A DNA stretch of 64,000 bases from an uncultured Catenibacillus sp. (lineage in GTDB: Bacteria; Bacillota; Clostridia; Lachnospirales; Lachnospiraceae): contig CAKRHR010000002.1 in the NCBI GenBank assembly GCA_934339005.1, positions 41,675 through 105,674 on the forward strand. The letters run 5' to 3'. The stretch's first letter is position 1. The number at the start of each line of letters is the position of its first letter. A model generated the notes under the pieces. It saw nothing but the letters and a program-made list of their open reading frames with translations. It did not search any database and was not told where the DNA came from. The position numbers were made by a program, and so were the translations under genes. Positions 21,140-43,917 of the stretch are shown piece by piece.

Positions 21140-21207
21140 AACTTGAATCTCAAAGAATATGAGTATATATGCCTGCTCAGGATAAAGACTAAATGGAGGA
21201 TGACGTT

Positions 21208-23007
21208 TTGAAGAAGATTAGGATGAGCAAAAAGATAAGTTCAGGAATTATTGCAGTATTGATGACATTGACGATGTTGGGTGGCCAGACACCTCAGGTA
21301 TATGCCGATGAATATGTATCAGAAACTACAGAGAAAGAAAACTTGTCAGCAGAAAGTACTAATTCTGATGAATCAATGCAGCAAACTGCAGAAACCCAGA
21401 ACACTTTGACTGAAATTGAAAATTCAGGACAAGCTCAGGAAAATTCAGACACAAATGTACTTTCAGAAGGGATAAATGATGATCCGGAAGCATACAGATG
21501 GGAACAAAGGCAGGCAACAATTACAGATGATTACGGTATCGCCCCGTTTGCACTTGAAGATAATATGGATATAGCAGGTTACGGTATTGATGTATCACAA
21601 CATAATGGTGTTATTGATTGGAAAAAAGTCAGAAACTCCGGTGTTGAATTTGCCTTAATTAGAGTTGGTTATAGAGGCTGGGGTCCAAGCGGAACACTGG
21701 TAGAAGATAGCAAAGCACGTCAAAATCTTGAAGGTGCGACAAAAGCCGGGATCAGAGTCGGTGCTTATTTCTTTTCAACAGCAATTACCGAGGAAGAAGC
21801 TAGAGAAGAAGCCCAGTTTACACTTGATATTGTGAAAAATTATGAGATTACATATCCGATTATTTATGACAATGAAGGTATGTATAAAGTATATTACAAT
21901 GGAGAGATGGTAGAAGGCCGGGATTATGATCTGACTGCAGCACAAAGAACGGATATGGCTATTGCTTTCTTAGATTGTATCAGAAATGCAGGGTATTATC
22001 CGATGATGTATGGTAATACAAGCTGCTATAAAAATTATGATGGCAGAGGATTTGAAGTGGGAAGACTTGAAAATCGTTATGATATCTGGGTGGCAGAGTA
22101 TTTTTGGTATGATTCTGATACTAAACAAGAATATCCATCTTTTGAATCAGCCAGAAGCAGAGAAACCACATATACAGGTGTACATAGTATCTGGCAGTTT
22201 TCATCACAAGGTCAGATAGATGGTATTTCAGGCAATGTTGATTTGGATTTTTGTTATAATGATATTTACGACAGTACACGATTAGTCAGACAATTTGTGA
22301 AACGGCTATATACATTGGTTCTTGGACGTGACGCTGATTCTGCAGGTCTTGTGGCGTGGACAGATCAGTTAATTAAGAAGAATAATACAGCTGCAGAAGT
22401 TGCATTTGGATTTGTATATAGTAAAGAGTTTCAGGAGAAGAATTTAAGCGATGAAGATTATATAGACGTTTTATATCAGACATGTCTTGGCAGAGATTCA
22501 GATGCTGTAGGAAAAGCAGCCTGGACAGACTGTTTAAATGGTGGATTTTCAAGAAGATATGTACTTCGCGGGTTTATTGAATCTATGGAATTTTCTGAAC
22601 TCTGTGCAGATGTCGGTATTGAGCGCGGCAGCATAGAGATGATTGAAAATAGAGATAAAAACGACAATACAACAAAATTTGTCAGAAGATGTTATAATGT
22701 ATTCTTAGACAGAGAACCGGATGCAGATGGATTAAATGAGTGGACAGGGCAGATTCTGGAGAATACAGATAATGCAAGAGAAGTTCCTTATGGATTTGTT
22801 TTCTCAAGAGAAATGACAGATAAAAAATTATCAAATGAGGCATTTGTGGCAATACTTTATAAAGGTATTATGGACAGGGAACCGGATGCAGATGGCTTAA
22901 AAGCGTGGACAGCAGTGCTTGATAAGGGTGAATCACGTTATCATGTTTATGAAGGCTTTGTATATTCAAAAGAATTTACAGAATTACTTTCAAAGTATGG
23001 TCTGTAA
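21208..23007 (+). CDS. Secreted GH25 muramidase (lysozyme) with a C-terminal four-repeat DUF4214-type module
   Basis: Signal peptide, acidic/Ser-Thr linker, GH25 block GIDVSQHNGVIDWKKV...GVEFALIRVGYRG, and four repeats of LY..(V/F)L.R..D..G...W. The start is ambiguous: TTG 21208 lies 8 nt after GGAGG; ATG 21193 and ATG 21223 are in-frame alternatives. Confidence 0.85.
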   Translation: MKKIRMSKKISSGIIAVLMTLTMLGGQTPQVYADEYVSETTEKENLSAESTNSDESMQQTAETQNTLTEIENSGQAQENSDTNVLSEGINDDPEAYRWEQRQATITDDYGIAPFALEDNMDIAGYGIDVSQHNGVIDWKKVRNSGVEFALIRVGYRGWGPSGTLVEDSKARQNLEGATKAGIRVGAYFFSTAITEEEAREEAQFTLDIVKNYEITYPIIYDNEGMYKVYYNGEMVEGRDYDLTAAQRTDMAIAFLDCIRNAGYYPMMYGNTSCYKNYDGRGFEVGRLENRYDIWVAEYFWYDSDTKQEYPSFESARSRETTYTGVHSIWQFSSQGQIDGISGNVDLDFCYNDIYDSTRLVRQFVKRLYTLVLGRDADSAGLVAWTDQLIKKNNTAAEVAFGFVYSKEFQEKNLSDEDYIDVLYQTCLGRDSDAVGKAAWTDCLNGGFSRRYVLRGFIESMEFSELCADVGIERGSIEMIENRDKNDNTTKFVRRCYNVFLDREPDADGLNEWTGQILENTDNAREVPYGFVFSREMTDKKLSNEAFVAILYKGIMDREPDADGLKAWTAVLDKGESRYHVYEGFVYSKEFTELLSKYGL

Positions 23008-23092
23008 AAATATTAAAGTTATATGAAAATGTCAGAATAAAGAGAGATTTTATGCCTGATATTATATTAAAAAGATACAGGAGATAGATGTT

Positions 23093-24481
23093 TTGGTCAG
23101 GTTTTTAAAAAAAATAGAAAAATCAATAGTGTTTGTTCTGAAGTCTTTGTTATATGTATGGATTCTTGGCAGTTTCTATTTAATTATGGCGATAGAGAAC
23201 TGGCCGTTGTTGCGTATTTCCCGTACAGCGGGTGTAACTTTACTGACGTTTTGCGCTGTATGGATCGGTATGATTGCTGCTTATGGTACATATGATATCG
23301 GCAAGCGTAAAAGTAAACCGATTATATCATCACTGGCTCTTGCAACAGCGATTACGGATATTGTAACATTTTTGCAGATTTCGATCATGAATACAAATGA
23401 GGCTAATGGCCTTGAGTTTAATCTTGCCAATATAGGCTTATTGGTAATTTCGTATGTAGCGCAGCTTGCAGGAATTATTGTCTTTGTATATGGTGGAAAT
23501 TGGTTGTATTTTCGATTGAATCGACCGGAACGATGTTGCCTGGTAGTATCAAGCAAGGAGGATTTTCTGGAAATTGTGGAAGCAATTAAAAGCTTTCACA
23601 GACAATATAATATTAAATATGTCCGTGGATATCAGGCAGATGATTTGAATACAGTTATGCTAAAGAGTGATACTGTATTTATTTATAATTTGCCTGTTGA
23701 AAAACGAACAGAGATTGTTGAATTTTGTTATCGCAATATGATTAATATTTACTACAATCCTGAAATAGCTGATATTGTAGAGATTAATTCAAAGTTTACA
23801 ATTTTAGATGATGCATCCTTTATTGCATCACCTGTTAAAGAATTATCTTTTGAGCAGCGTGTGATGAAGCGATTTATGGACATTTTATTTTCTGGTGTGG
23901 CATTGATTATTTTATCACCATTAATGATTATATGTGCTATAGCGATTAAAGTTGGCGATGGTGGGAAAGTTATTTTTAAACAGCAGAGAGCAACAAAGGA
24001 TGGCAGGATATTTTCAGTATATAAGTTCAGGACGATGAAAGAAAATGTTGAAAATTATTCTGCACTTGAAGATGATGACAGAATAACAAAGGTTGGAAAG
24101 TTACTGCGCAAATACCGTCTGGATGAACTTCCACAGTTGCTGAATATTCTTAAAGGCGAGATGAGTCTTGTCGGACCAAGACCGGAGATGCTGCGGAATG
24201 TATATATATATACAAAAGAATATCCCGAATTTGAATACAGACTTCGTGTGAAGGCAGGATTGACAGGATATGCACAGATTGCAGGTAAATATAACACTTC
24301 CCCAAAATACAAATTAATCCTCGATTTGATGTATATAGAAAATTATTCTGTTATAAAGGACATTAAATTGATTTTACAGACGCTGATCGTATTTTTTAAA
24401 TCAGACAGTACAGAAGGTTTTGGCCAGCAGACGGATGCATCTGTAAAGAAATACGAAAAAACAATGGATATCAAATTTTGA
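23093..24481 (+). CDS. Polyprenyl-phosphate glycosyl-1-phosphate transferase (WbaP/CpsE-type initiating PGT, large polytopic form)
   Basis: Four or five N-terminal TM helices. C-terminal bacterial sugar-transferase domain (KRFMDILFSG.ALI.LSP...I.AIAIK..DGG.VIFKQ.R....GR.F..YKFRTM; DELPQLLNILKGEMSLVGPRP). TTG start 8 nt after AGGAGA. Confidence 0.85.
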   Translation: MVRFLKKIEKSIVFVLKSLLYVWILGSFYLIMAIENWPLLRISRTAGVTLLTFCAVWIGMIAAYGTYDIGKRKSKPIISSLALATAITDIVTFLQISIMNTNEANGLEFNLANIGLLVISYVAQLAGIIVFVYGGNWLYFRLNRPERCCLVVSSKEDFLEIVEAIKSFHRQYNIKYVRGYQADDLNTVMLKSDTVFIYNLPVEKRTEIVEFCYRNMINIYYNPEIADIVEINSKFTILDDASFIASPVKELSFEQRVMKRFMDILFSGVALIILSPLMIICAIAIKVGDGGKVIFKQQRATKDGRIFSVYKFRTMKENVENYSALEDDDRITKVGKLLRKYRLDELPQLLNILKGEMSLVGPRPEMLRNVYIYTKEYPEFEYRLRVKAGLTGYAQIAGKYNTSPKYKLILDLMYIENYSVIKDIKLILQTLIVFFKSDSTEGFGQQTDASVKKYEKTMDIKF

Positions 24482-24510
24482 TTTTAAGTGATAACGGAGG
24501 CAAATTCGAT

Positions 24511-25272
24511 ATGAAGAAATTGCACGTGACATGCGGAATCGTAACATACAACAATGCGGATATTATTGAAAAATGTATAGGCACCCTTTTGGAGTATACT
24601 AAAGGGTGCAGTATTCGTATATATGTCTACGATAATCATTCATCAGATGGCACAGTAGAATTGATACAAAAGAAGTTTAAACAGGTACGGATAATAGCGA
24701 AGAAGAGTAATAAAGGGTTTGGCTATGGACATAACCGTATTCTTCAATCGTTGCCGCAGGCAGATTATCACATTGTTGTAAATCCGGACATTATGGTAGA
24801 TACAGATGTAGTTACTCAGATGGCAGAGTATATGGAGGCAAATAAAAATATTGGCATATTAATTCCAAAGGTTTTAAATACAGATGGTACAGAACAGTTC
24901 CTGCCAAAGTATCAGCCGAATTTTAAATATGTTATCATGAGTAAATTTAAACACTGGAAATATTACCGGGATATTTATACCCGGAAAAATGACCAGATCA
25001 AAGAACCTGTTAAGTGTGAAAATATATCGGGCAGCTTTTTTATGATACGAAGAAGTCTTGTTGAAGAATTACACGGATTTGATGAACGATATTTTATGTA
25101 CTTTGAAGATGCGGATTTGGCAAGACGTGCTAATCAGAAAACAGATTTGGTTTATAATCCCAACGTTTATGTTTATCATGCATGGAAACGGGATAACACA
25201 GGAAATATCAGAGGTATCTGTATTTTCTTAAAGTCGATGCTTAAATATGCGTTGAAGTGGAAAGGTTTTTAG
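24511..25272 (+). CDS. GT2-family glycosyltransferase (rhamnosyltransferase-like)
   Basis: ..CGIVTYNN..., DNHSSDGT and ..FFMIRR....LHGFDERYFMYFEDADL. ACGGAGG RBS before ATG 24511. Confidence 0.8.
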   Translation: MKKLHVTCGIVTYNNADIIEKCIGTLLEYTKGCSIRIYVYDNHSSDGTVELIQKKFKQVRIIAKKSNKGFGYGHNRILQSLPQADYHIVVNPDIMVDTDVVTQMAEYMEANKNIGILIPKVLNTDGTEQFLPKYQPNFKYVIMSKFKHWKYYRDIYTRKNDQIKEPVKCENISGSFFMIRRSLVEELHGFDERYFMYFEDADLARRANQKTDLVYNPNVYVYHAWKRDNTGNIRGICIFLKSMLKYALKWKGF

Positions 25273-25282
25273 GTAAGAGCAG

Positions 25283-26233
25283 ATGAAGATTCAGGTAGAT
25301 ATCTTAATGGCTGTATATAATGGCGAAAAATATCTTGAAGAACAATTGGCATCAATTGCAGAACAGACATATCAGGACTGGCACCTGATTATCAGAGATG
25401 ATGCTTCAACGGATAGAAGTATGCAAATTATAAAAGCTTTCCGGGATAAATATCCTGAAGGTAAAGTTGAGGTATATAAAAATGAGCCTGCTTCGGGATC
25501 TGCAAAAAATAATTTTTGTAAACTAATCCAGGATGCGAAAGCAGAGTATGTGATGTTCTGCGATCAGGATGATGTATGGATTTCTGATAAAATTGAACAG
25601 ACGCTAAAACAGATGCGCAGGCAGGAGATAAAAAATGGCTCTAAACAAGTACCGGTGCTGGTGCATTCGGATTTGTATGTTGTTGATGAACATTTAAATA
25701 TTATATCGGATTCGATGCAGAAATATCAGAAATTACCAAAAACTTCAAGTATACAGCGTTTGTTAATTCAAAATCATGTAACTGGCTGTACGATGATGGT
25801 CAACAGGTCTTTAATGGATTATTTGAAGCGGGCAGAGGATACAACTGCAATAGTTATGCATGATTATTGGGCAGCACTTATTGCAATGGTATTTGGAACA
25901 ATTGTTTTTATCCCCAGACCAATGATTAAATACCGTCAACATGGGGATAACTCCGTAGGCGCGATGAATGCAGCGGGGATAAAGTATTTATATATCAGAT
26001 TTAAAGCAGGAAGAAAGCAGTTTAGAGAACGAACAGAAGCAACGATGCTGCAGGCACGGGCCTTTTGTAAAGTATATGAATATGAATTAAGTAAAAATCC
26101 ATACAAAGATTTAATTAAAGCGTATTCAGAATTGACGGAAACGACTAAAATGCATAAAATAGAGTTTTATATATCGAAACACGTAACGAAATATGGTATA
26201 ATTAGAAAGATAATGCAATTTATTTGGAGTTGA
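25283..26233 (+). CDS. GT2-family glycosyltransferase
   Basis: ILMAVYNGEKYLEEQLASIAEQTYQDWHLIIRDDASTDRS, then the DQDD acidic motif. Confidence 0.8.
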   Translation: MKIQVDILMAVYNGEKYLEEQLASIAEQTYQDWHLIIRDDASTDRSMQIIKAFRDKYPEGKVEVYKNEPASGSAKNNFCKLIQDAKAEYVMFCDQDDVWISDKIEQTLKQMRRQEIKNGSKQVPVLVHSDLYVVDEHLNIISDSMQKYQKLPKTSSIQRLLIQNHVTGCTMMVNRSLMDYLKRAEDTTAIVMHDYWAALIAMVFGTIVFIPRPMIKYRQHGDNSVGAMNAAGIKYLYIRFKAGRKQFRERTEATMLQARAFCKVYEYELSKNPYKDLIKAYSELTETTKMHKIEFYISKHVTKYGIIRKIMQFIWS

Positions 26234-26237
26234 AAAG

Positions 26238-27500
26238 ATGAGTATACAACAAAAAATAATGTCAGGCGCAGATAAAATTAAGCCTGTATTAAAAAAAATA
26301 CTGCCTCAGAAATTTTTGAGTCAGGTTAAAAATAATATGCTTGATAAACAATTGAATACCATATTAACACAAAAAAGATTGCCATTTGAGAGAGAATGTT
26401 ATCCTGATGGTATTAATCTGATTGGTCTTGTACGTGCTGAGATGGGATTGGGACAAAGCTGCAGATTGATGGCGTCAATGATTGACCATACAAAATATCC
26501 GCTGATGCTTTATGATTTTAATCTCGGCAGTGAACTTTTGCGCTCAGAAGACCATTCATATGATGATAAGATTTCTGATGAATTAAAATATAATGTAAAT
26601 CTCATTCATATTAATCCGGATGAGATGAAATTATTATATACAAGAATGAACAGGGAAAATTTTGATAAACATTACAATATTGCATTCTGGCTGTGGGAAC
26701 TGGAAGATATTCCAAAATCATGGCAAACGTATTTCCCGATGTTGGATGAGATTTGGACACCATCGGAATTTATCAGCAATAGTCTGAGAAAAGTAACCGA
26801 TCTTCCTGTACGCACAATCCCGTATTGCGTGAAGGCACCGGTAAAAGATGAATATTCAAGAAGTTATTTCGGACTTCCAGAGGATCAGTTTTTGTTTCTG
26901 GCGATGTATGATTCCAACAGTACCAGAGAACGAAAAAATCCTATGGGAGCCATTTTGGCGTTTAAAACAGCTTTTGAGCGGGGTAATAAAGATGTTGGTC
27001 TGGTACTTAAGATCAACAATGCCAGAGATGAAGATATTACTTTATTAAAGAGTATGCTTGAAGGTTATGACAATATATATTATATCACGCAGACAATGAG
27101 TAAAGTTGAAGTAAACAGTCTGATCAAAGATGTAGATGTGTTTATTTCTATGCACAGAGCAGAAGGATTCGGCCTTGTAATGGCAGAAGCTATGTTAAAT
27201 GGCACACCAGTGATTGCTACAGACTGGTCATCAAATACAGAATTTATGAATCAAGATGTTGCATGCATGGTTGATTATACTTTTGTGACATTGAAAGAAG
27301 ATTTTCCACCATATAAGGCTGGAGCGGTATGGGCAGATCCAAATCCGGATACAGCTGCGGATTATATGAAAAAGTTATATAGTCAGCCTGAATTTTACAG
27401 AGAAAAAGCTCAAAAAGCTCAAACATATATTACAGATAAATTAAGTATGGGCAAAGCTGTTGAACTAATTGAAAAACGTATGGAGGAAATATATGATTAA
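26238..27500 (+). CDS. GT4 (GT1-fold) glycosyltransferase
   Basis: C-terminal E-x7-E signature EGFGLVMAEAMLNGTPVIATD. Confidence 0.75.
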   Translation: MSIQQKIMSGADKIKPVLKKILPQKFLSQVKNNMLDKQLNTILTQKRLPFERECYPDGINLIGLVRAEMGLGQSCRLMASMIDHTKYPLMLYDFNLGSELLRSEDHSYDDKISDELKYNVNLIHINPDEMKLLYTRMNRENFDKHYNIAFWLWELEDIPKSWQTYFPMLDEIWTPSEFISNSLRKVTDLPVRTIPYCVKAPVKDEYSRSYFGLPEDQFLFLAMYDSNSTRERKNPMGAILAFKTAFERGNKDVGLVLKINNARDEDITLLKSMLEGYDNIYYITQTMSKVEVNSLIKDVDVFISMHRAEGFGLVMAEAMLNGTPVIATDWSSNTEFMNQDVACMVDYTFVTLKEDFPPYKAGAVWADPNPDTAADYMKKLYSQPEFYREKAQKAQTYITDKLSMGKAVELIEKRMEEIYD

Positions 27501-28272
27501 ACATTTAAAAGAAATTTATGCGTATCGACAGATGATATTCAGTTTGGTCAGGAAGGAATTAAGGGGTCGATACAAAGGATCCGTATTAGGATTTTTGTGG
27601 ACATTTATTAATCCGCTGCTTCAATTGATGGTGTATACATTCGTATTTTCAATCGTATTACCGAATAACATTGATAAGTTTTATCTCTACCTGTTTGTAG
27701 GTCTTGTGCCGTGGTTATTTTTCAGCGGTTCCATGACAGGCGGTGCGGCATGTATCGTAAACCAGAAAGATATGGTAAAGAAAATTTACTTTCCGAGAGA
27801 AGTTATGCCGATATCCTATGTAGCCAGTGGATTTGTTAATATGCTGTTTTGCTTCATCGTTATTTTTGCAGTAATCATCGTTTCAGGTGTAGGTGTGAAT
27901 CCGGTAGCATTATTGTATCTTCCGGTGATTATGATTGTTGAGTTTATTATGGCACTCGGCGGGGCGATGCTTACATCTGCATTGACAGTTTATTTTAGGG
28001 ATTTGGAATACATTCTGGGTATTTTAACAATGGCCTGGATGTATTTTACACCGGTCGTATATTCTATGGAGATGGTACCAGACTGGATTAAACCATATTT
28101 TAATCTTAACCCAATGACACCGGTAATTAATGCATATAGAGATATTTTGTATTATAAACAAGTACCGCACTTGTCAACACTGGTGCAGGGACTGGTGCTT
28201 GGAATTATTGTCCTTATTATTGGTAGTATTTCATTTAGAAAACTTCAGAGAGGCTTTGCGGAGGAACTGTAA
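27493..28272 (+). CDS. ABC-2-type polysaccharide/teichoic-acid export permease (Wzm/TagG/RgpC-like)
   Basis: ..YRQMIFSLVRKELRGRYKGSVLGFLWTFINPLL.. is the ABC-2 signature, with six TM helices. ATG 27493 follows GGAGGA and overlaps the upstream stop. Confidence 0.88.
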   Translation: MIKHLKEIYAYRQMIFSLVRKELRGRYKGSVLGFLWTFINPLLQLMVYTFVFSIVLPNNIDKFYLYLFVGLVPWLFFSGSMTGGAACIVNQKDMVKKIYFPREVMPISYVASGFVNMLFCFIVIFAVIIVSGVGVNPVALLYLPVIMIVEFIMALGGAMLTSALTVYFRDLEYILGILTMAWMYFTPVVYSMEMVPDWIKPYFNLNPMTPVINAYRDILYYKQVPHLSTLVQGLVLGIIVLIIGSISFRKLQRGFAEEL

Positions 28273-29594
28273 TGATAGATAAGAATAATTCAATCGAAGT
28301 TCGTGATGTGACGAAAAAATTTAAAGTTTATTTTGATAAAGGCGCACAGCTTAAAGAACGATTATTATTCCGTAATCGAAACAGATATGAAGAACGCTGG
28401 GTATTAAACGGTGTCAGCTTCAATGTCAAAAAAGGTGAAGCCATTGGTTTGATCGGACATAACGGATGCGGAAAAAGTACAACTTTAAAGCTTTTGACAA
28501 GAATTATGTATCCGGATTCAGGTACCATTGAGATGCAGGGACGTGTATCCAGTCTGATTGAACTTGGTGCAGGATTTCATCCGGATATGAGTGGCCGTGA
28601 AAATATTTATACGAATGCTGCCATTTTTGGATTGACAAAAAAAGAAATTGATGAACGTTTGGATGATATTATCGAATTTTCGGAGATGGCACCGTTTTTG
28701 GATAATCCGGTACGAACATATTCATCCGGTATGTATATGCGACTGGCATTTTCTGTAGCCATTAACGTGAATGCAGATATTTTGTTAATTGATGAGATCC
28801 TGGCTGTTGGTGATGTGAATTTCCAGGCAAAGTGCTTTAATAAACTTAGAGAAATTAAGGCGCAAGGTACAACAATTGTGATCGTATCACATTCAATGGG
28901 TCAGATTGAACAGATTTGTGACCGAACTATATGGATTCATGATGGAAAAATCAAGATGGAGGGTAAACCAAGAGATGTAGACCCAGCCTACCTTGATTTT
29001 ATGGGTCAGCAAAGACAGGATATTGCACAGCAGGCGCAAAAGCATCAGGAACAAAAAGCCCAGGCACAGAAAGAAAAAGAACAGAAAAAGACTGAAGATA
29101 AATCGAATGATGTTAGCGCGGCTGAAGTCGAAGCGAATACGAAAAAGGCTGAAAACAGTGAAAAATTAAAGAAACGCTGGGGAAATGGTAAAGCCAGAAT
29201 TACATCAGTAAAAATGTGTGATGCAAGTGGTCAGAAAAAGACAGTGTTTTCTACAGGCGAGCAAGTTTCTATATGTTTAGAATATGAACTGATTGAAAAA
29301 GTTCAGGATGCTGTTTTTGGTATTGGTATTTTCAGAGGTGATGGGCTTCAGTGTTATGGTACGAATACACGTATTGAGCAATTTGATAAATTTGACCTTA
29401 CAAAAGATGGAAATGTAAAAATCAATATTGACCAGATGAATCTACTTCCAGGACAATACACACTGGATATTGCGATTGAGTCAGATGATGCGACACCTGT
29501 AGATTATTATAAAGAGTCTTATAAATTTGAGATATTCTCAAGCATTGGTGATGTCGGGGTTGCAAGACTTGGTCATACATGGGAGGTAGAATAA
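28272..29594 (+). CDS. ABC polysaccharide-export ATPase (Wzt/TagH/RgpD-like) with a Q/K/E-rich linker and a C-terminal Wzt-C-like putative glycan-binding domain
   Basis: Walker A GHNGCGKST, signature YSSGMYMRLAF and Walker B ILLIDE. A charged linker of about 70 aa (QQRQDIAQQAQKHQEQKAQAQKEKEQKK..), then a roughly 140-aa beta-rich domain (ARITSVKMCDASG..FSTGEQVSICLEY..). TAATG overlap with the permease. Confidence 0.85.
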   Translation: MIDKNNSIEVRDVTKKFKVYFDKGAQLKERLLFRNRNRYEERWVLNGVSFNVKKGEAIGLIGHNGCGKSTTLKLLTRIMYPDSGTIEMQGRVSSLIELGAGFHPDMSGRENIYTNAAIFGLTKKEIDERLDDIIEFSEMAPFLDNPVRTYSSGMYMRLAFSVAINVNADILLIDEILAVGDVNFQAKCFNKLREIKAQGTTIVIVSHSMGQIEQICDRTIWIHDGKIKMEGKPRDVDPAYLDFMGQQRQDIAQQAQKHQEQKAQAQKEKEQKKTEDKSNDVSAAEVEANTKKAENSEKLKKRWGNGKARITSVKMCDASGQKKTVFSTGEQVSICLEYELIEKVQDAVFGIGIFRGDGLQCYGTNTRIEQFDKFDLTKDGNVKINIDQMNLLPGQYTLDIAIESDDATPVDYYKESYKFEIFSSIGDVGVARLGHTWEVE

Positions 29595-30523
29595 TGATAG
29601 GTGAGAGGGAAAAGTTTTCTCAGAAATTCATAAAAAAATTTATGAAAGAAGAAATTGAAAAAACTGTTGAAAAAGAAGTCCAAAAAAGATTTATTGAGAT
29701 TGAAAAGCAGCTCAATAAAGTGAAAGAAGATATCCCTGTTCAGGTTAAAAATACAATCAATGAACATCAATTTGATGAACGGATGATTCAGGCAGAAAAG
29801 AATTTAAGAAGCATTAATCAGTATATTGAATCAAAAGAAAATAAAAATCAGGATGATGGTGCGATAGATTATTTTGATTTTGAAAATTATTTCCGTGGTC
29901 CAAGAGAAATGATCAAGGAATGGCAAAAAGTTTATCTGCCTTACTTTGAAGGACATAAAAATGTGCTGGATATCGGCTGCGGCAGAGGTGAATTCCTTGA
30001 ATTAATGACTGAACATGGTATAGATGCCACAGGTATAGATCTTTATGATAAATTTGTAGATTATTGCAAGAGCCTTGGGCTTAAAGTTGTGTTGTCAGAC
30101 GGTATAGCATATCTTGGCGCACAGGAGCAGGTCGGTGGCATATTTGCATCACAGGTGATTGAACATTTGCCATCAGACAAAATGATTGAATTTTGCAGAC
30201 TAGCTTATCAAAAACTTGAAAAGGGTGCATATTTGATATTGGAAACACCGAATCCAATGTGTCTGTCTATATTTACACATGCATTTTATATTGATCCTTC
30301 GCACAACAAACCGGTGCATCCATTAACTGTTAAATATATATTGGAACGAGCAGGGTATAGTGAAATTCAGATTATTTATCCTGAAGTCAGCAAATATCCG
30401 GAACAGATTCCGATGCTTAAAGGTGATGGTATAGAAAATATAGATGAATTTAATGCTGCAATTGTCAAGCTTAATGATGTACTTTATGGTCATCAGGATT
30501 ATGCGATTATTGCTAAAAAATAG
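29594..30523 (+). CDS. Class I SAM-dependent methyltransferase with a roughly 95-aa N-terminal charged coiled-coil-like extension
   Basis: SAM motif I VLDIGCGRGEF. The N-terminus EKFSQKFIKKFMKEEIEKTVEKEVQKRFIEIEKQLNKVKED.. is heptad-like. TAATG overlap with Wzt. Confidence 0.8.
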   Translation: MIGEREKFSQKFIKKFMKEEIEKTVEKEVQKRFIEIEKQLNKVKEDIPVQVKNTINEHQFDERMIQAEKNLRSINQYIESKENKNQDDGAIDYFDFENYFRGPREMIKEWQKVYLPYFEGHKNVLDIGCGRGEFLELMTEHGIDATGIDLYDKFVDYCKSLGLKVVLSDGIAYLGAQEQVGGIFASQVIEHLPSDKMIEFCRLAYQKLEKGAYLILETPNPMCLSIFTHAFYIDPSHNKPVHPLTVKYILERAGYSEIQIIYPEVSKYPEQIPMLKGDGIENIDEFNAAIVKLNDVLYGHQDYAIIAKK

Positions 30524-30538
30524 AAACCTTGGAGGTAT

Positions 30539-31030
30539 ATGATGGAAGAACAGATGAAATCAATTAACGTTGAAGAAATCATGGCAGAAATTCGCCTGAA
30601 TATAGAAAAAAGAGGGGAAACACCGGATATTTTAGATTTTGATGAGGCCGAGGCTGACAAAGTGTGTGCGGGTGGCTTTAAGGGCAGCGTGCGCTATGAT
30701 GAAAATGTATTACATCAGGCACTTTCAAGAGCAAATGAAGAACATAATATTCCATATTATCAGATGATTCCTGCCGGCGGCTTTAAATCTTTTGTCAAAC
30801 GCAGTATCCGAAAAGTCATTGCATTTATCGTGCTGCCGCTCAGAGATGCGCAGAATCGTTATAATGCATATACAGTCGAGACAATGATGCAGTTAGAAGC
30901 ATGTACATTGATGCAGCAGGAGATGCTTAAAAAGCAGGAAGAAGATCTGGAAAAAATGACAGAACGTCTTCAGAAATTGGAAAAGAAATGTGAACAGTTA
31001 CTTTCCGAAAGAGAAAATGGAGAAATGTAA
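30539..31030 (+). CDS. Hypothetical soluble coiled-coil protein (163 aa)
   Basis: No TM segment. C-terminus ..MQQEMLKKQEEDLEKMTERLQKLEKKCEQLLSERENGE. The ATG doublet at 30539/30542 follows GGAGG. No family recognised. Confidence 0.55.
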   Translation: MMEEQMKSINVEEIMAEIRLNIEKRGETPDILDFDEAEADKVCAGGFKGSVRYDENVLHQALSRANEEHNIPYYQMIPAGGFKSFVKRSIRKVIAFIVLPLRDAQNRYNAYTVETMMQLEACTLMQQEMLKKQEEDLEKMTERLQKLEKKCEQLLSERENGEM

Positions 31031-32239
31031 ATGAAACCAAGAGTTTGTTTTGTTGTACAACGATATGGATTAGAAGTTAATGGCGGTGCGGAGTTGCAGA
31101 GCAGACAGATGGCAGAGCATTTACTTCCGTATTGTGATGTTGATGTATTAACTTCAAAAGCGATAGATTACATGACATGGAAAGATGAGTATACAAATGA
31201 AACTGAAATTATCAATGGCGTTCATATTCGTCGTTTTAGTGTTGGGCATCCAAGAGATATTTCAGAATTTAATATCATTAATCAGCGCTTCATGGATAGC
31301 ATTCATACAACACCGGAGCAGGAACAGGAATGGGTGGACGCACAGGGACCATATCTGCCGAATTTGATAGAATATATCAGAAAACATAAAAATGATTATG
31401 ATGCATTTGTATTTTTCACATATCTGTATTATCAAACAGTGATGGGTGTGCAGGAAGTTAAAGATAAAGCTATTGTTATTCCGGAAGCACATGATGAACC
31501 GTTTATGCGTATGCGTATTTTTGAGAATGTTTTCAGATTTCCTAAAGCGTTTTTCTTTAATACGGCTGAGGAACGTCAACTTGTCCACAGAAAATATTAT
31601 AACCATTTTGTCAGAGACGATTTGGGTGGTGTTGGCATAGAAATGCCGGAAAAGGTATGTGCAAAAGATTTTATACAAAAATACGGCATTGATAATTATA
31701 TTATTTATGTTGGTCGAATTGATGAAGGTAAAAATTGTCGTCAGTTATTTGATGATTTTATTGCATACAAGAAAAAACACCCATCTGACCTTAAATTAGT
31801 TTTAATGGGTAAAGAAGTCATTCCTGTACCTGAGTGTGATGATATTGTTTCACTTGGATTTGTCAGTGACCAGGATAAATTTGATGGTATTGCAGGTGCA
31901 AAATTGCTCGTATTACCATCTAAGTTTGAGAGTCTTTCAATGGTAGTACTTGAAGCCTTTTCATTGGATGTCCCGGTTCTTGTTAATGGTGTGTGTGAAG
32001 TACTTAAAGCACATTGCCAGAAAAGTAATGGTGGTTTTTATTATGAAACATCTGAAGAATTTGAAGCTATGCTGGACTATATGATCAAGCATGAAGATAT
32101 TCGGAAAATCATGGGACAGCATGGACATCGGTATGCAGATGAAAATTATCAGTGGGATGTTGTTATTCGAAGATTATATACATTAATTCAATATGTCATG
32201 GATGAAAATAAAAAAGAGTGTCAGGAGAGAAGCAGATGA
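31031..32239 (+). CDS. GT4 glycosyltransferase
   Basis: ESLSMVVLEAFSLDVPVLVNG (E-x7-E). The start abuts the upstream TAA. Confidence 0.8.
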   Translation: MKPRVCFVVQRYGLEVNGGAELQSRQMAEHLLPYCDVDVLTSKAIDYMTWKDEYTNETEIINGVHIRRFSVGHPRDISEFNIINQRFMDSIHTTPEQEQEWVDAQGPYLPNLIEYIRKHKNDYDAFVFFTYLYYQTVMGVQEVKDKAIVIPEAHDEPFMRMRIFENVFRFPKAFFFNTAEERQLVHRKYYNHFVRDDLGGVGIEMPEKVCAKDFIQKYGIDNYIIYVGRIDEGKNCRQLFDDFIAYKKKHPSDLKLVLMGKEVIPVPECDDIVSLGFVSDQDKFDGIAGAKLLVLPSKFESLSMVVLEAFSLDVPVLVNGVCEVLKAHCQKSNGGFYYETSEEFEAMLDYMIKHEDIRKIMGQHGHRYADENYQWDVVIRRLYTLIQYVMDENKKECQERSR

Positions 32240-33300
32240 GAATTGTACAAATGCTGCCGGTATTTGCATTCGGGGATGCGATAGGAAATGATACATTAGC
32301 CTTAGATAAAGCGTTAAAAGATAATGGATATGAATCAGCAATTTATGCAGAACATGTGGATGACCGTGTGAAATATGCCGCAGATATGATAGCTGAATAT
32401 GATAACAGACCTGATGACATTATTTTATTTCATTTATCAACCGGTGCAGATATGAATTACAAAATTTCAGAATATGATAATCCTTTGATTGTTATGTATC
32501 ATAATATTACACCGGGGTCTTTCTTTGAAAAATATGACATGAATGCATACAATGTTTGCGAGAGTGGACGCAGGGCGGCAAAATATTTAAAAAAGAAAGC
32601 AACAATATGCATCGCAGATTCTGAATATAATAAGCAGGAATTAGTAGAGATGGGATATGAATGTCCGATCGAAGTTTTACCGATTTTGATTGCATTTGAT
32701 GATTATCAGAAAAAACCGACAGAATCTGTCATTGAAAAATACAAAGACGGATATACAAACATTGTGTTTACAGGTCGTGTGGCACCAAATAAAAAGCATG
32801 AAGATCTGATTGCAACATTTTCATACTATAAAAAATATATTAATCCAAAATCGAGATTACTTCTTGTTGGAAGATATGATTTCTTCCCTGAATATTATAG
32901 ACGGCTTCAAAAATATGTGGAGCAACTCGGTGTTGAAGATGTGATCTTTACAGGTCAGGTTAAATTTCCGGATATTCTTGCATATTACAAGGTGGCGGAT
33001 GTGTTTTTGTGTTTGAGTGAGCATGAAGGCTTTTGCGTGCCGCTTGTTGAATCAATGATGTTTGATGTACCTGTAATTGCGTATGATAGCTGTGCAGTCG
33101 GTGAAACATTAGGAGGCAGCGGTTTGTTGCTCAATGATAAAACACCTGCAGTTGTTGCAGAAGCGATTGAACGTGTAAGAACAGATGAGTGTTTGAAACA
33201 GACAATTATTGAAAACCAGAAAATTCGATTAAAATATTTTGAGCATAGCCGTATTAATGCGCAGTTTATAGATATTATTAATAGACTGGTACAAAATTAG
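32236..33300 (+). CDS. GT4 glycosyltransferase
   Basis: EGFCVPLVESMMFDVPVIAYD. ATGA overlap with the upstream gene and an AGGAGAGA RBS. Confidence 0.8.
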   Translation: MRIVQMLPVFAFGDAIGNDTLALDKALKDNGYESAIYAEHVDDRVKYAADMIAEYDNRPDDIILFHLSTGADMNYKISEYDNPLIVMYHNITPGSFFEKYDMNAYNVCESGRRAAKYLKKKATICIADSEYNKQELVEMGYECPIEVLPILIAFDDYQKKPTESVIEKYKDGYTNIVFTGRVAPNKKHEDLIATFSYYKKYINPKSRLLLVGRYDFFPEYYRRLQKYVEQLGVEDVIFTGQVKFPDILAYYKVADVFLCLSEHEGFCVPLVESMMFDVPVIAYDSCAVGETLGGSGLLLNDKTPAVVAEAIERVRTDECLKQTIIENQKIRLKYFEHSRINAQFIDIINRLVQN

Positions 33301-33317
33301 CATGAGGATGAACAACG

Positions 33318-35051
33318 ATGAATAATCAGAAGGATTCTATCTATGAAAATATGAATAGAAAAAATATGTTATGTGTATTTTTTCTGGGCGTACTTATCGG
33401 AACAGTTTATTTTTTGGCAATTTATGGTATCAGGCCATTAAATGTATGTGACGATTCATGGCTGTTATCCGGAGGAGATTTAAGTCAGCATTATTTTGGC
33501 TGGTGCTTTTATCGTAATTCACCGTGGCAATATCCTATAGGAATGATTGACGGATTAATGTATCCGGATAAGTTATGCATTACGTATACAGATTCCATTC
33601 CTTTATTTGCGATTGTATTTAAAGTTTTATCACCGATATTGCCAAAAACATTTCAGTACTTTGGATTATGGGGTATATTTTCTTATATGATGCTTGGAGG
33701 ACTTTCTTCAATCTTAATTCGTAAAGTTACTCCGAAATGGTATTTATGCGGTGTTGGTTCTGCATTTTTTGTGATGTCACCATATGTTTTGCAGCGAATG
33801 TTTAAACACACATCACTTGCGGGACAGTGGATAATAATTGCTGCGCTTATAATCGTAGTATATAAACCGTTTTTCAATAGCTTTAGAAGACAATTAACAG
33901 CATGGGCAGCATTATTATTTATAGCGGCTTTTACACATATTTATTTTGTGCCGATGGTTGCAATATTCATGTTCGGGTTTTGCGTGGAAGATGTTCTTGC
34001 AAATGCCAGCCATATTGGAAAAAGTTTTTTGAAAAATCTGTGCCTGGGTATTTGTTCATGCATTCCGGCATTAATAGGACTGAAATTACTCGGAAGTTTT
34101 GATGGTACAAGCAATCTGTCAGCAGATGGACTTGGTGAGTATAGTGCCAATTTGAATGTTTTGTTTAATCCCCTGGGATATGCAGGACACAACATATTTC
34201 CTATATTAAAATCACTTCAGACACAGTACGAAGGTTTTGGTTATCTTGGTGCAGGCATAATCTTACTTGCTATTTCTATTTTGTTTTATAAAATATTTGC
34301 GTCTTTTTTGAAAAAGAAATTGCAAAAATCAGTTCCGGTTAAAGATAACCCAGAAAATAAGAAGCAGATTTTTGGCAGATGGATAAAAAAGCATGCATTT
34401 GCGATAGCAATGATTATAGTGAGTATCATATTTATAGTGTTTGCGCTTAGTCCGGTAATTACTTGGGGAGATCAGGAATTGATGACCATTCACTATCCTG
34501 GTTTTGTCATAAAAATCTGGTCAATGTTTAGAGCTACAGGACGATTTATCTGGTGTATTGATTATATTATTTTTACATGGGCGCTTATGGGCGTTATGCG
34601 TATTGGCGAGAAAATAATATCGATGATTCTTCTGTTTGCATGTTTTGCAGTCCAGGTGTATGATCTGATGCCATTAATGTCGATGTCTCATTATTGGTCT
34701 GCATCTCTTGAATCCACTTTAATGCCATTAAATGATGAACATTGGAATCAGTGGGCAGATCAGTACAAACATATTCAGTTCATGCCATACAATATTTGCC
34801 TTGCACATCAGGAATGGATGTTTAGCCTGGCTGATTATGCCAAAGATCATCATATGACACTAAATTACTATGTTTCAGCCAGATCAGATTTTGAACGCTT
34901 AGAGGCTGTTACGCAGGAAGCATACACAGAACTTTCAAGAGGAGAAGGTCAGACAGATACATTGTATATTTTTATGGATGAACAATCTGCAAAAGATAGT
35001 CATTTAAATATCTATAATGTCGATGGTATGTTTGTCGGTACGACCGATTAG
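33318..35051 (+). CDS. Polytopic membrane protein, putative GT-C-fold glycosyltransferase (about 12 TM plus a C-terminal extracytoplasmic domain)
   Basis: Hydrophobicity pattern. Acidic motif (..NVCDDSWLLSGGD..) directly after TM1. A C-terminal soluble region of about 120 aa. No named family recognised with confidence. Confidence 0.5.
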   Translation: MNNQKDSIYENMNRKNMLCVFFLGVLIGTVYFLAIYGIRPLNVCDDSWLLSGGDLSQHYFGWCFYRNSPWQYPIGMIDGLMYPDKLCITYTDSIPLFAIVFKVLSPILPKTFQYFGLWGIFSYMMLGGLSSILIRKVTPKWYLCGVGSAFFVMSPYVLQRMFKHTSLAGQWIIIAALIIVVYKPFFNSFRRQLTAWAALLFIAAFTHIYFVPMVAIFMFGFCVEDVLANASHIGKSFLKNLCLGICSCIPALIGLKLLGSFDGTSNLSADGLGEYSANLNVLFNPLGYAGHNIFPILKSLQTQYEGFGYLGAGIILLAISILFYKIFASFLKKKLQKSVPVKDNPENKKQIFGRWIKKHAFAIAMIIVSIIFIVFALSPVITWGDQELMTIHYPGFVIKIWSMFRATGRFIWCIDYIIFTWALMGVMRIGEKIISMILLFACFAVQVYDLMPLMSMSHYWSASLESTLMPLNDEHWNQWADQYKHIQFMPYNICLAHQEWMFSLADYAKDHHMTLNYYVSARSDFERLEAVTQEAYTELSRGEGQTDTLYIFMDEQSAKDSHLNIYNVDGMFVGTTD

Positions 35052-35096
35052 GGTGATTTACCTATTATAAAAATCTGGATAAAAAGAGGATGAAAG

Positions 35097-35834
35097 ATGA
35101 ATAACTCAGATGTGGAACTTTCCGTTGTGATGCCTGCATACAACGAAGGTGATAAAATCTATAATAACTCAATACATGTAAGTGCTGCAGTTGCAAAATT
35201 CTGTGACAGCTATGAGATCGTCGTTGTTAATGATGGCAGTAAAGATGCTACAAAAACAGAAACTTTAAGGGCACAGGAAAAAGATCATCATATTCGTCTT
35301 GTAACTTATGATGAAAACGGTGGTAAAGGCAAAGCAATCCGTAAAGGTATTGAGACTGCAAAGGGAAAATTCATAGCGATGCTTGATGCGGATCTTGATC
35401 TGCCGCCGGAACAGTTAAAGGATTATATTAATGTACTGCGGGCTGATCAGGCAGACGTTGTGATTGGTTCAAAGATGCATAAAGATTCACAGATTGATTA
35501 TCCGCCTATCCGTAAAGTTATGAGTTTTGGATACTATTGCTTTTTAAGAATGTTATTTCATTTGAAAATTAAAGATACACAGACAGGAATTAAAATGTTT
35601 AAGGCAGAGGTGATCAAACCTATTATTTCGTTAGTACAGACAAAAGGCTTTGCCTATGACATTGAGATTCTTGTTGCGGTAAATTGCAGACGTTATCGCA
35701 TCAAAGAGATGCCGGTTCAGCTTGTATTTACAAGAGGTAACGGTATGGGCAGAATTCATATATCTGATATTTTTAAGATGGTAGGAGATACATTTAAAAT
35801 TTTCAGACGTGCACGTAAGAAAGAATATAACTAG
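35097..35834 (+). CDS. GT2 polyprenyl-phosphate sugar synthase-like glycosyltransferase (DPM1/GtrB-type catalytic domain, no TM helices)
   Basis: LSVVMPAYNEG, VVVNDGSKDAT, GGKGKAIRKGI, LDADLDLPP. Confidence 0.7.
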   Translation: MNNSDVELSVVMPAYNEGDKIYNNSIHVSAAVAKFCDSYEIVVVNDGSKDATKTETLRAQEKDHHIRLVTYDENGGKGKAIRKGIETAKGKFIAMLDADLDLPPEQLKDYINVLRADQADVVIGSKMHKDSQIDYPPIRKVMSFGYYCFLRMLFHLKIKDTQTGIKMFKAEVIKPIISLVQTKGFAYDIEILVAVNCRRYRIKEMPVQLVFTRGNGMGRIHISDIFKMVGDTFKIFRRARKKEYN

Positions 35835-35878
35835 ATTTATCAGAACTTAGACAATAACAAACAAAGGGGTATTTGCAG

Positions 35879-37063
35879 ATGAAAAAAATAGGATTTGTTA
35901 TTCCATGGCATGGATCAAATATTCCTGGCGGTGCAGAGATGGCTTTAAGAGAAGTGACACAGCATCTTGCAGCGGCTGGAGAAAATATAGAAATCTTATC
36001 CACCTGTGTACGTGAGTTTACTGCAGATTGGAATGAAAATTATTATAAACCGGGCGTTACTGTAGAGGATGGTATTACGGTTCGCAGGTTTAAAGTGCGC
36101 AAACGCAATGTCGATGCATTTAACCAGGTTAATATTAAATTGATGCATAATGAAAAAATTACAGATGGTGAAGAAAAAATATTTATTAATGAGATGGTGA
36201 ATAGCCCGGATTTATATAAATATATTTCAAAACATCAGGCGGAATACGATTTATTTGTATATATACCATATATGTTTGGCCCAACATATTTTGGATGTAA
36301 GGCATGTCCTGAAAAATCTGTTTTAATTCCATGTTTTCATGAAGAAGCATATATTTATTTGAATATATTTAAAGATATGTTTTCAAAAGTCAGGGGTATG
36401 ATTTTTAACGCATTACCGGAAAAACAGATTGCAGAGCGTGTATATGATTTGTCACATGTTCGGACAATCGTACCGGGGCTTGGTATGAACACAGGTCTTA
36501 AATGTGATGCGGAACGTTTCAGAAGTAAGTTTGATATCGAGGAACCATTTATATTGTATGCCGGTCGTAAAGATGTCGGTAAAAATATCTATACATTGAT
36601 TCATTATTTTGAACAGTACAAAAAGAGAAATCAAAACGATATGAAGCTTGTTTTGATCGGCGGTGGCCAGGTTAATATCCCGAAAGATATTCAGGATGAT
36701 GTGATCGATCTCGGATTTGTCGATGTGCAAGATAAGTATGATGCCTATGCGGCAGCATTAACATTATGTCAGCCATCAAAACATGAAAGCTTTTCTTATG
36801 TTATTATGGAAAGTTGGCTGTGCAGACGTCCGGTACTTGTGCACAAGGACTGTGATGTTACAAAAAATTTCGCTGTAGAATCTAATGGTGGTTTCTATTT
36901 TGAAAATTATTTCGAATTTGAAGCACAGGTAAACTACTATATTGAACACCCGGATATTGCACTTCAAATGGGTGAAAATGGCAGACAGTATGTATTAAAT
37001 AATTTTGACTGGCCGGTTGTAGTGAAGAAGTATCGGGAGTTTTTTGACGAGTTGAGAAAATAA
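35879..37063 (+). CDS. GT4 glycosyltransferase
   Basis: ESFSYVIMESWLCRRPVLVHKD. ATG 35879 is preferred over the in-frame TTG 35873. Confidence 0.8.
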   Translation: MKKIGFVIPWHGSNIPGGAEMALREVTQHLAAAGENIEILSTCVREFTADWNENYYKPGVTVEDGITVRRFKVRKRNVDAFNQVNIKLMHNEKITDGEEKIFINEMVNSPDLYKYISKHQAEYDLFVYIPYMFGPTYFGCKACPEKSVLIPCFHEEAYIYLNIFKDMFSKVRGMIFNALPEKQIAERVYDLSHVRTIVPGLGMNTGLKCDAERFRSKFDIEEPFILYAGRKDVGKNIYTLIHYFEQYKKRNQNDMKLVLIGGGQVNIPKDIQDDVIDLGFVDVQDKYDAYAAALTLCQPSKHESFSYVIMESWLCRRPVLVHKDCDVTKNFAVESNGGFYFENYFEFEAQVNYYIEHPDIALQMGENGRQYVLNNFDWPVVVKKYREFFDELRK

Positions 37064-37103
37064 AATGATAGAAGTGATTTATATAAACTGAGGAACATAC
37101 ACA

Positions 37104-39548: not shown

Positions 39549-39615
39549 ATTTGTAAAGAAGTTTTTAAAATAGTATTTAAAGATAAATTATATGTGTAAT
39601 TGGAGGTAGCAAAAG

Positions 39616-40605: not shown

Positions 40606-40607
40606 TA

Positions 40608-42781: not shown

Positions 42782-42794
42782 TGGGAGAGATTGG

Positions 42795-43916: not shown

Positions 43917-43917
43917 C

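Follow-up and report, generated by a model that had tools for sequence, protein, structure and literature searches.

The window, a 64,000-nucleotide stretch of DNA from a Lachnospiraceae-like Gram-positive bacterium of the gut Clostridia type, carries a series of plus-strand genes centred on an ABC-type glycan exporter. The features considered here are as follows.

23093..27500, plus strand: upstream block of the same operon-like unit, encoding a WbaP-type initiating phosphoglycosyl transferase, GT2, GT2 and GT4
27469..28272, plus strand: Wzm, ABC-2 permease of the glycan exporter (PF01061 ABC2_membrane, E 1.2e-21)
28272-29594, plus strand: Wzt, 440 aa
28272..28997, plus strand: Wzt nucleotide-binding domain (NBD), residues 1-242 (ABC_tran at residues 45-176, E 4.1e-24)
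28998..29171, plus strand: Wzt linker, residues 243-300, low-complexity, 58 aa (composition Q11, K11, E8, A8)
29172..29567, plus strand: Wzt_C carbohydrate-binding module (CBM), residues 301-432 (PF14524, E 8.7e-33)
29594..29869, plus strand: charged N-terminal extension (stalk) of the methyltransferase, residues 1-92, predicted helical from sequence features
29870..30523, plus strand: class I SAM methyltransferase catalytic domain, residues 93-309, 3DLI-like (Methyltransf_23, E 2.6e-15)
30539-31030, plus strand: 163-aa ORF, real and conserved, here called the adaptor
30539..30778, plus strand: adaptor head, residues 1-80, with the motif (I/V)(N/D)VExIMxEIR and two short helices
30779..31030, plus strand: adaptor long helix, residues 81-161 (AlphaFold2 pLDDT 90-95)
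31031..32239, plus strand: GT4 glycosyltransferase, 402 aa (Glycos_transf_1, E 2.6e-13)
32218..33300, plus strand: second GT4 glycosyltransferase, 360 aa (Glycos_transf_1, E 4.4e-25)

These genes are tightly coupled. The wzm stop overlaps the wzt start, and the wzt TAA (29592-29594) overlaps the methyltransferase ATG (29594-29596) as TAATG, with GGGAGG preceding the ATG; both this overlap and the positions of the wzt, methyltransferase and adaptor genes agree with an earlier, sequence-only reading of the locus. The adaptor gene abuts the first GT4 gene, which starts at the base after the adaptor stop. A promoter and terminator scan of 22900-39700 gave matches at chance level and so contributes nothing to the operon evidence from the gene overlaps. 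The upstream block, whose initiating transferase matches Bac_transf at E 2.7e-63 and whose gene order is also found in L001, L004 and L064, is probably responsible for primer or adaptor synthesis. Within the ABC-transporter part of the locus, the coupled methyltransferase is the only modifying enzyme besides the glycosyltransferases. The position of Wzm directly 5' of Wzt is kept in related loci, and the whole block Wzm-Wzt(Wzt_C)-methyltransferase-adaptor-GT4 recurs in L001-L016, L030 and L062-L064. The first GT4 may be a component of the polymerase. The type to which the second belongs is the commonest direct follower of the adaptor elsewhere, being its downstream neighbour in 29 loci.

Wzt itself is readily classified. 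Its closest solved relatives over the NBD are A. aeolicus Wzt (E 4e-83 for 8dku/7k2t) and TagH/TarH, with the alignment to solved Wzt NBDs extending to about residue 246, and it is a Wzt/TagH-type NBD with an ABC-2 permease partner. The sequence-only reading had proposed an HMM check of the C-terminal region against Wzt_C (PF14524), and this check identifies a genuine CBM: residues 301-432 score 113.8 bits against a Pfam cut-off of 30.4, and the module matches the A. aeolicus Wzt carbohydrate-binding domain (PDB 6o14/8dky/7k2t; E ~1e-5 to 1e-6) as well as E. coli O9a Wzt-C (2r5o; E 0.012). Wzt_C occurs once in the genome, in this protein. A Wzt_C CBM is the hallmark of capped-glycan export, and the transporter, with a CBM on its own ATPase, shows this feature of the capped-glycan ABC class. 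The Q/K/E-rich linker is present as had been noted, but at 58 aa it is shorter than the roughly 70 aa claimed. Nor is it a special part of this system: equivalent linkers in 37 related Wzt proteins are hypervariable, at 20-74 aa with a median of 45, so that a long linker is a trait of the entire clade.

The 309-aa start of the methyltransferase is backed by an orthologue of 309 aa that is 96% identical. The Methyltransf_23 match spans residues 112-255. The match to 3dli covers the full catalytic domain (residues 93-309, E 1.9e-52), which contains SAM motif I, LDIGCGRG, with LDIGCGRGEF conserved. PDB 3DLI, a 240-aa structural-genomics methyltransferase of unknown function, is a full-length homologue of this domain, including the C-terminal G-x-QDYAIIAKK, although it lacks the N-terminal stalk present here. 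The enzyme belongs to an uncharacterised 3DLI-like family. Homology to WbdD, with which the earlier reading had compared the module, was rejected. Matches to WbdD structures (4azs, 4azw, 4uw0, 4ax8) are confined to some 40 residues around motif I (E 0.13-0.19), which is all that the two enzymes have in common, and Pfam and NCBIfam scans of the three proteins found no kinase family such as the O9a type of WbdD contains.

The stalk is likewise unlike the C-terminal coiled coil of WbdD, being a short N-terminal extension of 92 aa. It had been described as a heptad-like helix of about 95 residues. Strong charge is indeed present (42% of residues 1-92, with a single Pro at P48 and Gly at positions 3 and 89 only), and strict heptad order in residues 27-47 is significant, being reached by 2/500 shuffles, but the heptads do not extend beyond these 21 residues: order over 28 or 35 residues was not significant in the same test. 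The segment has a basic amphipathic start and a three-heptad stretch, followed by Pro48. Fourier periodicity was weak and uninformative, and a search of the stalk against the PDB returned no coiled-coil matches. We also considered whether the stalk is a degenerate adaptor helix, and rejected this relationship because the matches (E 0.03-0.4, with strong composition bias) were not significant.

For the adaptor, an AlphaFold2 model built from a 60-sequence alignment (mean pLDDT 79, compared with 66 in a 14-sequence run) predicts helices at 11-24, 55-68 and 81-161, that is, a small helical head and one 80-residue helix. The long helix carries a basic amphipathic segment, KSFVKRSIRKVIAF, in which windows starting at residues 85-88 have a hydrophobic moment of 0.61-0.63 and a net charge of +3 to +5. 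An invariant P...QNxxN motif follows and then a heptad coiled-coil tail; the heptad pattern at about 126-160 is significant (reached by 0-4/500 shuffles), which bears out the earlier description of a protein with a coiled-coil C-terminus. The coiled coil is clear in this protein and its fused relatives, and marginal in the methyltransferase's own stalk. The family pattern K-x-F-x-K-R-x-I-R-K...P....Q-N-x-x-N, after an N-terminal (I/V)(N/D)VExIMxEIR helix, is present here in both parts, and E17, Q105 and N109 are invariant in 60 sequences. A profile search gathered 779 clusters at 50% identity, and the family is unannotated: searches of Pfam, NCBIfam and the PDB gave no matches to the adaptor, profile comparison of the head with PDB sequences gave none, and Foldseek of the model against the PDB gave none below E 3. 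The family profile matched PDB sequences only as generic coiled coils, weakly and in the tail.

Which protein the adaptor serves can be approached from its partners across relatives, and we scored 57 adaptor loci for gene content. The most constant neighbour is a GT4: in 43/49 cases it lies directly 3' of the stand-alone adaptor gene, at a distance of -4 to +20 nt and often with a 4-nt overlap, while the upstream neighbour varies. Some genomes (L050, L052, L055) contain two adaptor copies, each ahead of its own GT4. A methyltransferase of the present family occurs in only 17/57 loci and is therefore dispensable for the adaptor. These patterns would fit a purely GT4-accessory protein (a scaffold, membrane tether or oligomerisation factor) that makes no contact with the methyltransferase here. 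On this account the stalk would only let the enzyme self-associate or touch the membrane with its basic N-terminus; in methyltransferase homologues, residues 1-25 have a median net charge of +2, compared with -2 in the next segment. We nevertheless regard this account as unlikely, because natural fusions join the adaptor domain to the same methyltransferase family. Six one-chain proteins (P0154, P0221, P0279, P0282, L044, L045) combine adaptor domain, coiled coil and methyltransferase, with the adaptor domain N-terminal and joined via long coiled coils. The L045 fusion stands directly after Wzm-Wzt(Wzt_C). Further fusions link the domain to FkbM methyltransferases (P0240, L035, L042). Also weighing against a GT4-only role, adaptors beside a methyltransferase have longer coiled-coil tails (median 54 vs 44 aa, p 0.014 without phylogenetic correction), and the order methyltransferase-adaptor-GT4 is kept while the stalk ranges from about 60 to 317 aa.

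The fusions give Rosetta-stone support to the idea of a split coiled-coil partner and link the adaptor to the methyltransferase. The earlier proposal that the 163-aa protein is the methyltransferase's partner holds to this extent, but the more constant neighbour is the downstream GT4. Judged by these sequence comparisons, the protein seems better described as a GT4-docking adaptor able to carry a terminator.

The best explanation of the locus is that it forms the chain-termination and export-licensing core of an ABC transporter-dependent cell-wall glycan pathway, and it is plausible that the trio of Wzt, methyltransferase and adaptor is a split Gram-positive version of a cap-then-export system. 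In the model that we favour, and consider rather probable, the adaptor binds to the GT4 polymerase and tethers the methyltransferase via a helical stalk; the glycan receives its cap from this enzyme, and Wzt_C reads the cap before export. The WbaP-type transferase would start the glycan on undecaprenyl phosphate, and the GT2 and GT4 enzymes would extend it in the cytoplasm. Contact with the neighbouring GT4 polymerase, with the membrane face or with both may be made by the adaptor head and basic amphipathic segment. The coiled-coil tail could pair with the helical stalk at the N-terminus of the methyltransferase, such that two polypeptides rebuild the adaptor domain-coiled coil-methyltransferase arrangement found elsewhere in a single chain. 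O-methylation of the non-reducing terminal sugar would then halt polymerisation, and Wzt_C, on its flexible linker, would bind the capped end and admit the chain to the Wzm/Wzt channel. The stalk may also fix a minimum chain length. The cap-and-recognise logic suggested by the sequence-only reading is therefore retained in part: the Wzt_C module, the coupled methyltransferase and the fusions favour it, but the relation to WbdD and the special status of the linker fall away.

A methyl cap is not the only signal that Wzt_C might read. The methyltransferase could instead modify internal repeat sugars or another substrate, with Wzt_C recognising a terminal sugar added by a glycosyltransferase or the polymer itself. 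The 3DLI-like family has no characterised member, and sugar caps added by glycosyltransferases are documented, for example Kdo in Klebsiella O12 and O4 (PMC11231755). Moreover, Wzt_C is present in 39/57 adaptor loci and this methyltransferase in 17/57; since many adaptor/Wzt_C loci lack the enzyme, other cap chemistries must exist in the clade. For the present locus, however, we think internal decoration improbable. The methyltransferase gene begins on the last base of the wzt stop codon, and it lies immediately beside the adaptor gene in 12/12 loci that have it as a separate adjacent gene. The fusion of two methyltransferase families to the same adaptor and coiled coil is the architecture of a terminator and not of an internal decorator, and a methyl-capped glycan in an ABC pathway of a Gram-positive has a precedent in G. 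stearothermophilus.

That precedent is the S-layer glycan locus of G. stearothermophilus NRS 2004/3a, in which wzm, wzt and wsaE overlap and the methyltransferase domain of WsaE caps the glycan by 2-O-methylation, a mark that Wzt is proposed to recognise (PMC2943079). The two loci share a Gram-positive host, WbaP-type initiation, Wzm/Wzt export and overlapping wzm, wzt and methyltransferase genes. They differ in that the WsaE methyltransferase is fused to two rhamnosyltransferase domains, whereas the present enzyme is unfused and carries a stalk, the adaptor and GT4s being separate proteins. The proposed capping step can also be compared with the WbdD/WbdA system of E. coli O9a/O8 (K. pneumoniae O3/O5), which likewise belongs to an ABC-transporter pathway with a Wzt_C-bearing Wzt and in which WbdA is the GT4 polymerase. 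A helical spacer between the methyltransferase and a GT4-recruiting or membrane-binding region, as proposed here, would be a further shared trait. WbdD has a basic amphipathic membrane-proximal end (PMC11231755) and a site that recruits the polymerase; the counterpart of that end here would be the amphipathic segment of the adaptor. Unlike WbdD, the methyltransferase here is non-homologous beyond motif I and without a kinase, its stalk precedes the enzyme, and stalk and docking part reside on two polypeptides, so that the amphipathic segment and the GT4 adjacency belong to the separate 163-aa protein. The docking domain is of an unannotated family, and initiation is by a WbaP-type enzyme in a Gram-positive host.

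Division of such a system among polypeptides is not itself unusual. In Klebsiella and E. coli, coiled-coil terminators, some split over several polypeptides, are an established pattern (PMC11231755). In K. pneumoniae O4 every activity is on a separate protein and the cap is Kdo (PMC11231755, Kelly et al. 2024), and in O7 a methyltransferase-kinase provides a methyl-phosphate cap (PMC11231755). As proposed for the present locus, O4 and O7 show that terminator, coiled-coil and polymerase modules may share a polypeptide or be divided among several. In those systems, however, the catalytic protein bears the coiled coil, and no counterpart of the 163-aa domain has been described (PMC11231755).

The locus and the roughly 60 relatives examined point to a common, modular version of this logic in gut Lachnospiraceae and Oscillospiraceae, built from components without annotation: one is the adaptor domain, the other a methyltransferase family for which a structural-genomics entry is the sole reference. 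Nearly all that we know of cap-then-read export with a coiled-coil ruler comes from Gram-negative O antigens, and in Gram-positives we know of direct data only for the Geobacillus S-layer glycan. We tentatively suggest a broader interpretation, which we hold with much less confidence than the model for this locus: the adaptor may represent a new docking-domain family, common among gut Clostridia and present in some Actinobacteria, that couples GT4 polymerases to capping methyltransferases from two or more families, fused into a single chain or divided between two proteins, with the stalk acting as a molecular ruler that sets wall-polysaccharide length. Confirmation of the modular cap-and-export system would give a role to the adaptor family, with its roughly 780 clusters. 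It would also show how chain length is controlled, in abundant gut commensals, for wall polysaccharides exposed to phages and the immune system.

Against the favoured model, stalk and adaptor lengths showed no visible co-variation among relatives, and in two of the loci with adaptor-methyltransferase fusions (L042, L044) Wzt is short and without a CBM. The stalks themselves span 35-317 aa among 117 methyltransferase homologues and, if the ruler interpretation is correct, would provide natural length variants for tests of that model. Some related stalks are arrays of 17-residue ENVRNLN repeats, whose species-dependent copy number might, under this interpretation, contribute to the ruler; the stalk at the present locus has one copy of the family motif E-x-N-L-R-x-x-N, at residues 68-75.

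The genes for the ABC ATPase Wzt, the methyltransferase and the 163-aa protein, here called the adaptor, belong to one closely packed run in the window (21193-37063), in which all genes lie on the same strand:

21193-23007, GH25 muramidase with DUF4214 repeats
23093-24481, WbaP-type phosphoglycosyl transferase
24478-25272, GT2 glycosyltransferase
25283-26233, GT2 glycosyltransferase
26238-27500, GT4 glycosyltransferase
27469-28272, Wzm
28272-29594, Wzt
29594-30523, methyltransferase
30539-31030, 163-aa ORF (adaptor)
31031-32239, GT4 glycosyltransferase
32218-33300, GT4 glycosyltransferase
33318-35051, DUF6311 membrane protein
35097-35834, GT2 glycosyltransferase
35873-37063, GT4 glycosyltransferase

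The gene overlap noted in the sequence-only reading is present: wzt ends and the methyltransferase gene begins within a common TAATG, which is preceded by a GGGAGG ribosome-binding site. An in-frame ATG at 29579 offers an alternative methyltransferase start, but we favor TAATG because it is supported by a 309-aa orthologue with 96% identity. At the other end, the adaptor stop (31030) directly adjoins the start of a GT4 gene (31031), and a promoter and terminator scan of the locus gave no signal above chance. The locus is present once in this genome and is patchy in relatives, with the methyltransferase in 3 of 21 genomes, as expected of a variable surface-glycan locus.

The strongest evidence that the adaptor and the methyltransferase probably act as one working unit comes from fusion proteins. 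The adaptor itself matches nothing in Pfam, NCBIfam or the PDB. Searching 1.84 billion representative proteins with a profile built from 14 homologues retrieved 779 clusters at E ≤ 1e-3 (296 at E ≤ 1e-10), whose members are mostly 130-200 aa long. Longer matches combine the adaptor domain with a coiled or repeat region of 100-250 aa and end in a methyltransferase. In P0154, P0221, P0279, P0282, L044 and L045, this enzyme is of the same family as that in the window and shares with it the terminal YGSQDYAIIAKK; in L045, from a Coriobacteriaceae MAG, the fusion gene lies directly 3' of Wzm and a Wzt with the carbohydrate-binding module Wzt_C. An FkbM methyltransferase is found instead in the fusions P0240, L035 and L042. 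In P0187 (874 aa), a radical-SAM/SPASM domain precedes the adaptor domain, which a repeat-rich coiled coil connects to a methyltransferase; this hints at a second chemistry carried on the same stalk. The window pair is not a simple gene split, since its order, methyltransferase then adaptor, reverses the domain order of the fusions.

Gene neighborhoods, sampled at one genome per species, gave 57 adaptor loci, mainly from Lachnospiraceae, Oscillospiraceae, Ruminococcus and Saccharofermentans, together with one Coriobacteriaceae MAG, one Spirochaetaceae MAG and two loci of one Erysipelotrichaceae genome. Nearly all (56 of 57) have a GT4 related to those of the window, and most also have Wzm (41), Wzt (42) and Wzt_C (39); a methyltransferase of the same family is present in 17. 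Related loci also occur in cultured species such as Frisingicoccus caecimuris and Catenibacillus scindens (L014, L016). Of 49 informative stand-alone adaptor genes, 43 are directly followed by a GT4, usually at a spacing between a 4-nt overlap and a 20-nt gap, whereas the 5' gene varies (methyltransferase 12, Wzt 11, GT4 13, other 13). The GT4 is therefore the adaptor's constant partner and the methyltransferase an optional cargo. Some genomes hold two adaptor copies, each 5' of its own GT4. When the adaptor follows a methyltransferase, its tail beyond QNxxN is longer (median 54 versus 44 aa; one-sided p 0.014, kinship ignored).

Two helical motifs are conserved in the adaptor family, (I/V)(N/D)VExIMxEIR in the N-terminal helix and K-x-F-x-K-R-x-I-R-K-x3-F-x3-P-x4-Q-N-x-x-N in the second, and across 60 sequences E17, Q105 and N109 are invariant. 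An AlphaFold2 model built from 60 sequences (mean pLDDT 79) predicts helices at 11-24, 55-68 and 81-161, the last a single helix with pLDDT 90-95; a Foldseek search with this model found no match. The long helix includes a basic amphipathic stretch (windows starting at 85-88, hydrophobic moment 0.61-0.63, net charge +3 to +5). The coiled-coil C-terminus suggested earlier is borne out by a significant heptad pattern at residues 126-160, and generic coiled coils give weak matches to the family profile.

In the methyltransferase, residues 93-309 form a class I SAM-dependent domain (Methyltransf_23). All of this domain is homologous to PDB 3DLI (E 1.9e-52), which comes from structural genomics and has no assigned function. 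Kinship with WbdD, the E. coli O9a/O8 chain terminator, was rejected, as matches were confined to the SAM-binding loop (E 0.13-0.19); judged by sequence, the enzyme would be at most a functional analogue of WbdD, not a relative. Residues 1-92, the stalk, had been described as a charged, heptad-like helix. They are indeed 42% charged and nearly devoid of Gly and Pro, but strict a/d heptads are significant only at 27-47, and the stalk matched no coiled-coil structure in the PDB. Among 117 close homologues, the segment preceding the catalytic domain can be as short as 35 or as long as 317 aa, and in all of them an E-x-N-(L/V/I)-R-x-x-N motif closes the stalk right before the enzyme. Long stalks contain 9-13 tandem 17-residue units with ENVRNLN, occasionally 14- or 21-residue units (L062:7001-8398, L063:7001-8602, and the proteins P0062, P0116 and P0068); because 17 is not a multiple of seven, such arrays may not be canonical coiled coils. 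The stalk of the orthologue P0018 (83% identity) has 78 residues versus 92 in the window (29594-29869), a difference of exactly 14, or two heptads. The genomic context was checked for three homologues, two of which have long repeat arrays: each locus runs from Wzm and Wzt(Wzt_C) to methyltransferase, small protein and GT4, and the small protein always belongs to the adaptor family.

The C-terminal region of Wzt proved to be the proposed carbohydrate-binding module: residues 301-432 match Pfam Wzt_C (E 8.7e-33), and the isolated region matches the solved A. aeolicus Wzt domain (6o14, 8dky, 7k2t; E ~1e-5 to 1e-6) and E. coli O9a Wzt-C (2r5o; E 0.012). It is the sole Wzt_C in this 95%-complete genome. 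The Q/K/E/A-rich linker between it and the nucleotide-binding domain spans 58 residues; in 37 related Wzt proteins the linker is 20-74 aa long (median 45) and not conserved in sequence, so it is a disordered, fast-evolving, clade-wide tether. At the extreme of this hypervariable tether, that of L020:4613-5980 consists of about 20 Glu-Pro dipeptides, (EP)n. Locus L063 has two adjoining, divergently oriented Wzm/Wzt(Wzt_C) pairs (1-1223 and 1729-3865).

In E. coli O9a, a coiled coil lies between the catalytic domains of WbdD and its membrane-proximal end, where an amphipathic helix is found and the GT4 polymerase WbdA is recruited, and the cap is read by the carbohydrate-binding module of Wzt. 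In Klebsiella O4, these tasks are divided among separate proteins (PMC11231755). The Gram-positive Geobacillus stearothermophilus initiates with a WbaP-type enzyme; its genes wzm, wzt and wsaE overlap, and the methyltransferase encoded within wsaE makes the terminal 2-O-methyl group (PMC2943079). The window shares both the overlapping wzm/wzt/methyltransferase genes and the type of initiator. By analogy with these systems, the end near the polymerase and the membrane would here be provided by the adaptor, and the spacer would consist of the adaptor tail together with the stalk of the methyltransferase. The methyltransferase would cap the chain, and Wzt_C, flexibly tethered, would then license its export. 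Domain identities, gene coupling, synteny and fusions were observed directly, whereas the cap, the complex and the ruler are inferences. We consider this cap-and-export model reasonably probable as a whole, and a ruler function, taken by itself, distinctly more doubtful.

The methyltransferase may instead decorate internal residues, with the cap added by a glycosyltransferase. It is missing from most adaptor/Wzt_C loci, and in two fusion loci Wzt has only 255-257 aa and no carbohydrate-binding module (L042:4579-5346; L044:1799-2572), so that either the cap-reading module is located elsewhere or capping does not gate export there; the fusion architectures, however, weaken this explanation. They likewise weaken the idea that the adaptor may serve GT4s only, which draws on the same methyltransferase-free loci and module-less Wzt proteins. 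The cap-then-export logic that we favor is already known, including in one Gram-positive, and such capped-glycan systems were reportedly surveyed in a 2019 census. Features that seem undescribed are the adaptor family, the way it pairs with GT4s, the family of 3DLI-like methyltransferases on stalks of variable repeats, and the division over two polypeptides.

Downstream of the cytoplasmic glycosyltransferases, 33318-39548 encodes the polytopic DUF6311 protein, a GT2 of 245 aa and a membrane protein of 814 aa that has no firm family. These may form a polyprenyl-phosphate-sugar-dependent system that decorates the glycan outside the membrane, after its export. Farther along, 39616-50267 holds a second glycan cluster, which is of the Wzx-flippase type (Polysacc_synt 46019-47554, acyltransferase 49323-50267), with a G+C content of 27-34% versus 35-42% upstream. 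Three secreted proteins of the window, the GH25 muramidase (21193-23007), a CAP-domain protein (50383-52203) and a BspA-type LRR protein (54425-57070), each carry four DUF4214 repeats as a C-terminal block. DUF4214 also occurs in some methyltransferase homologues (P0099, P0133, L046:3748-5337) and may be a wall-glycan-binding module for the polymer of this locus.
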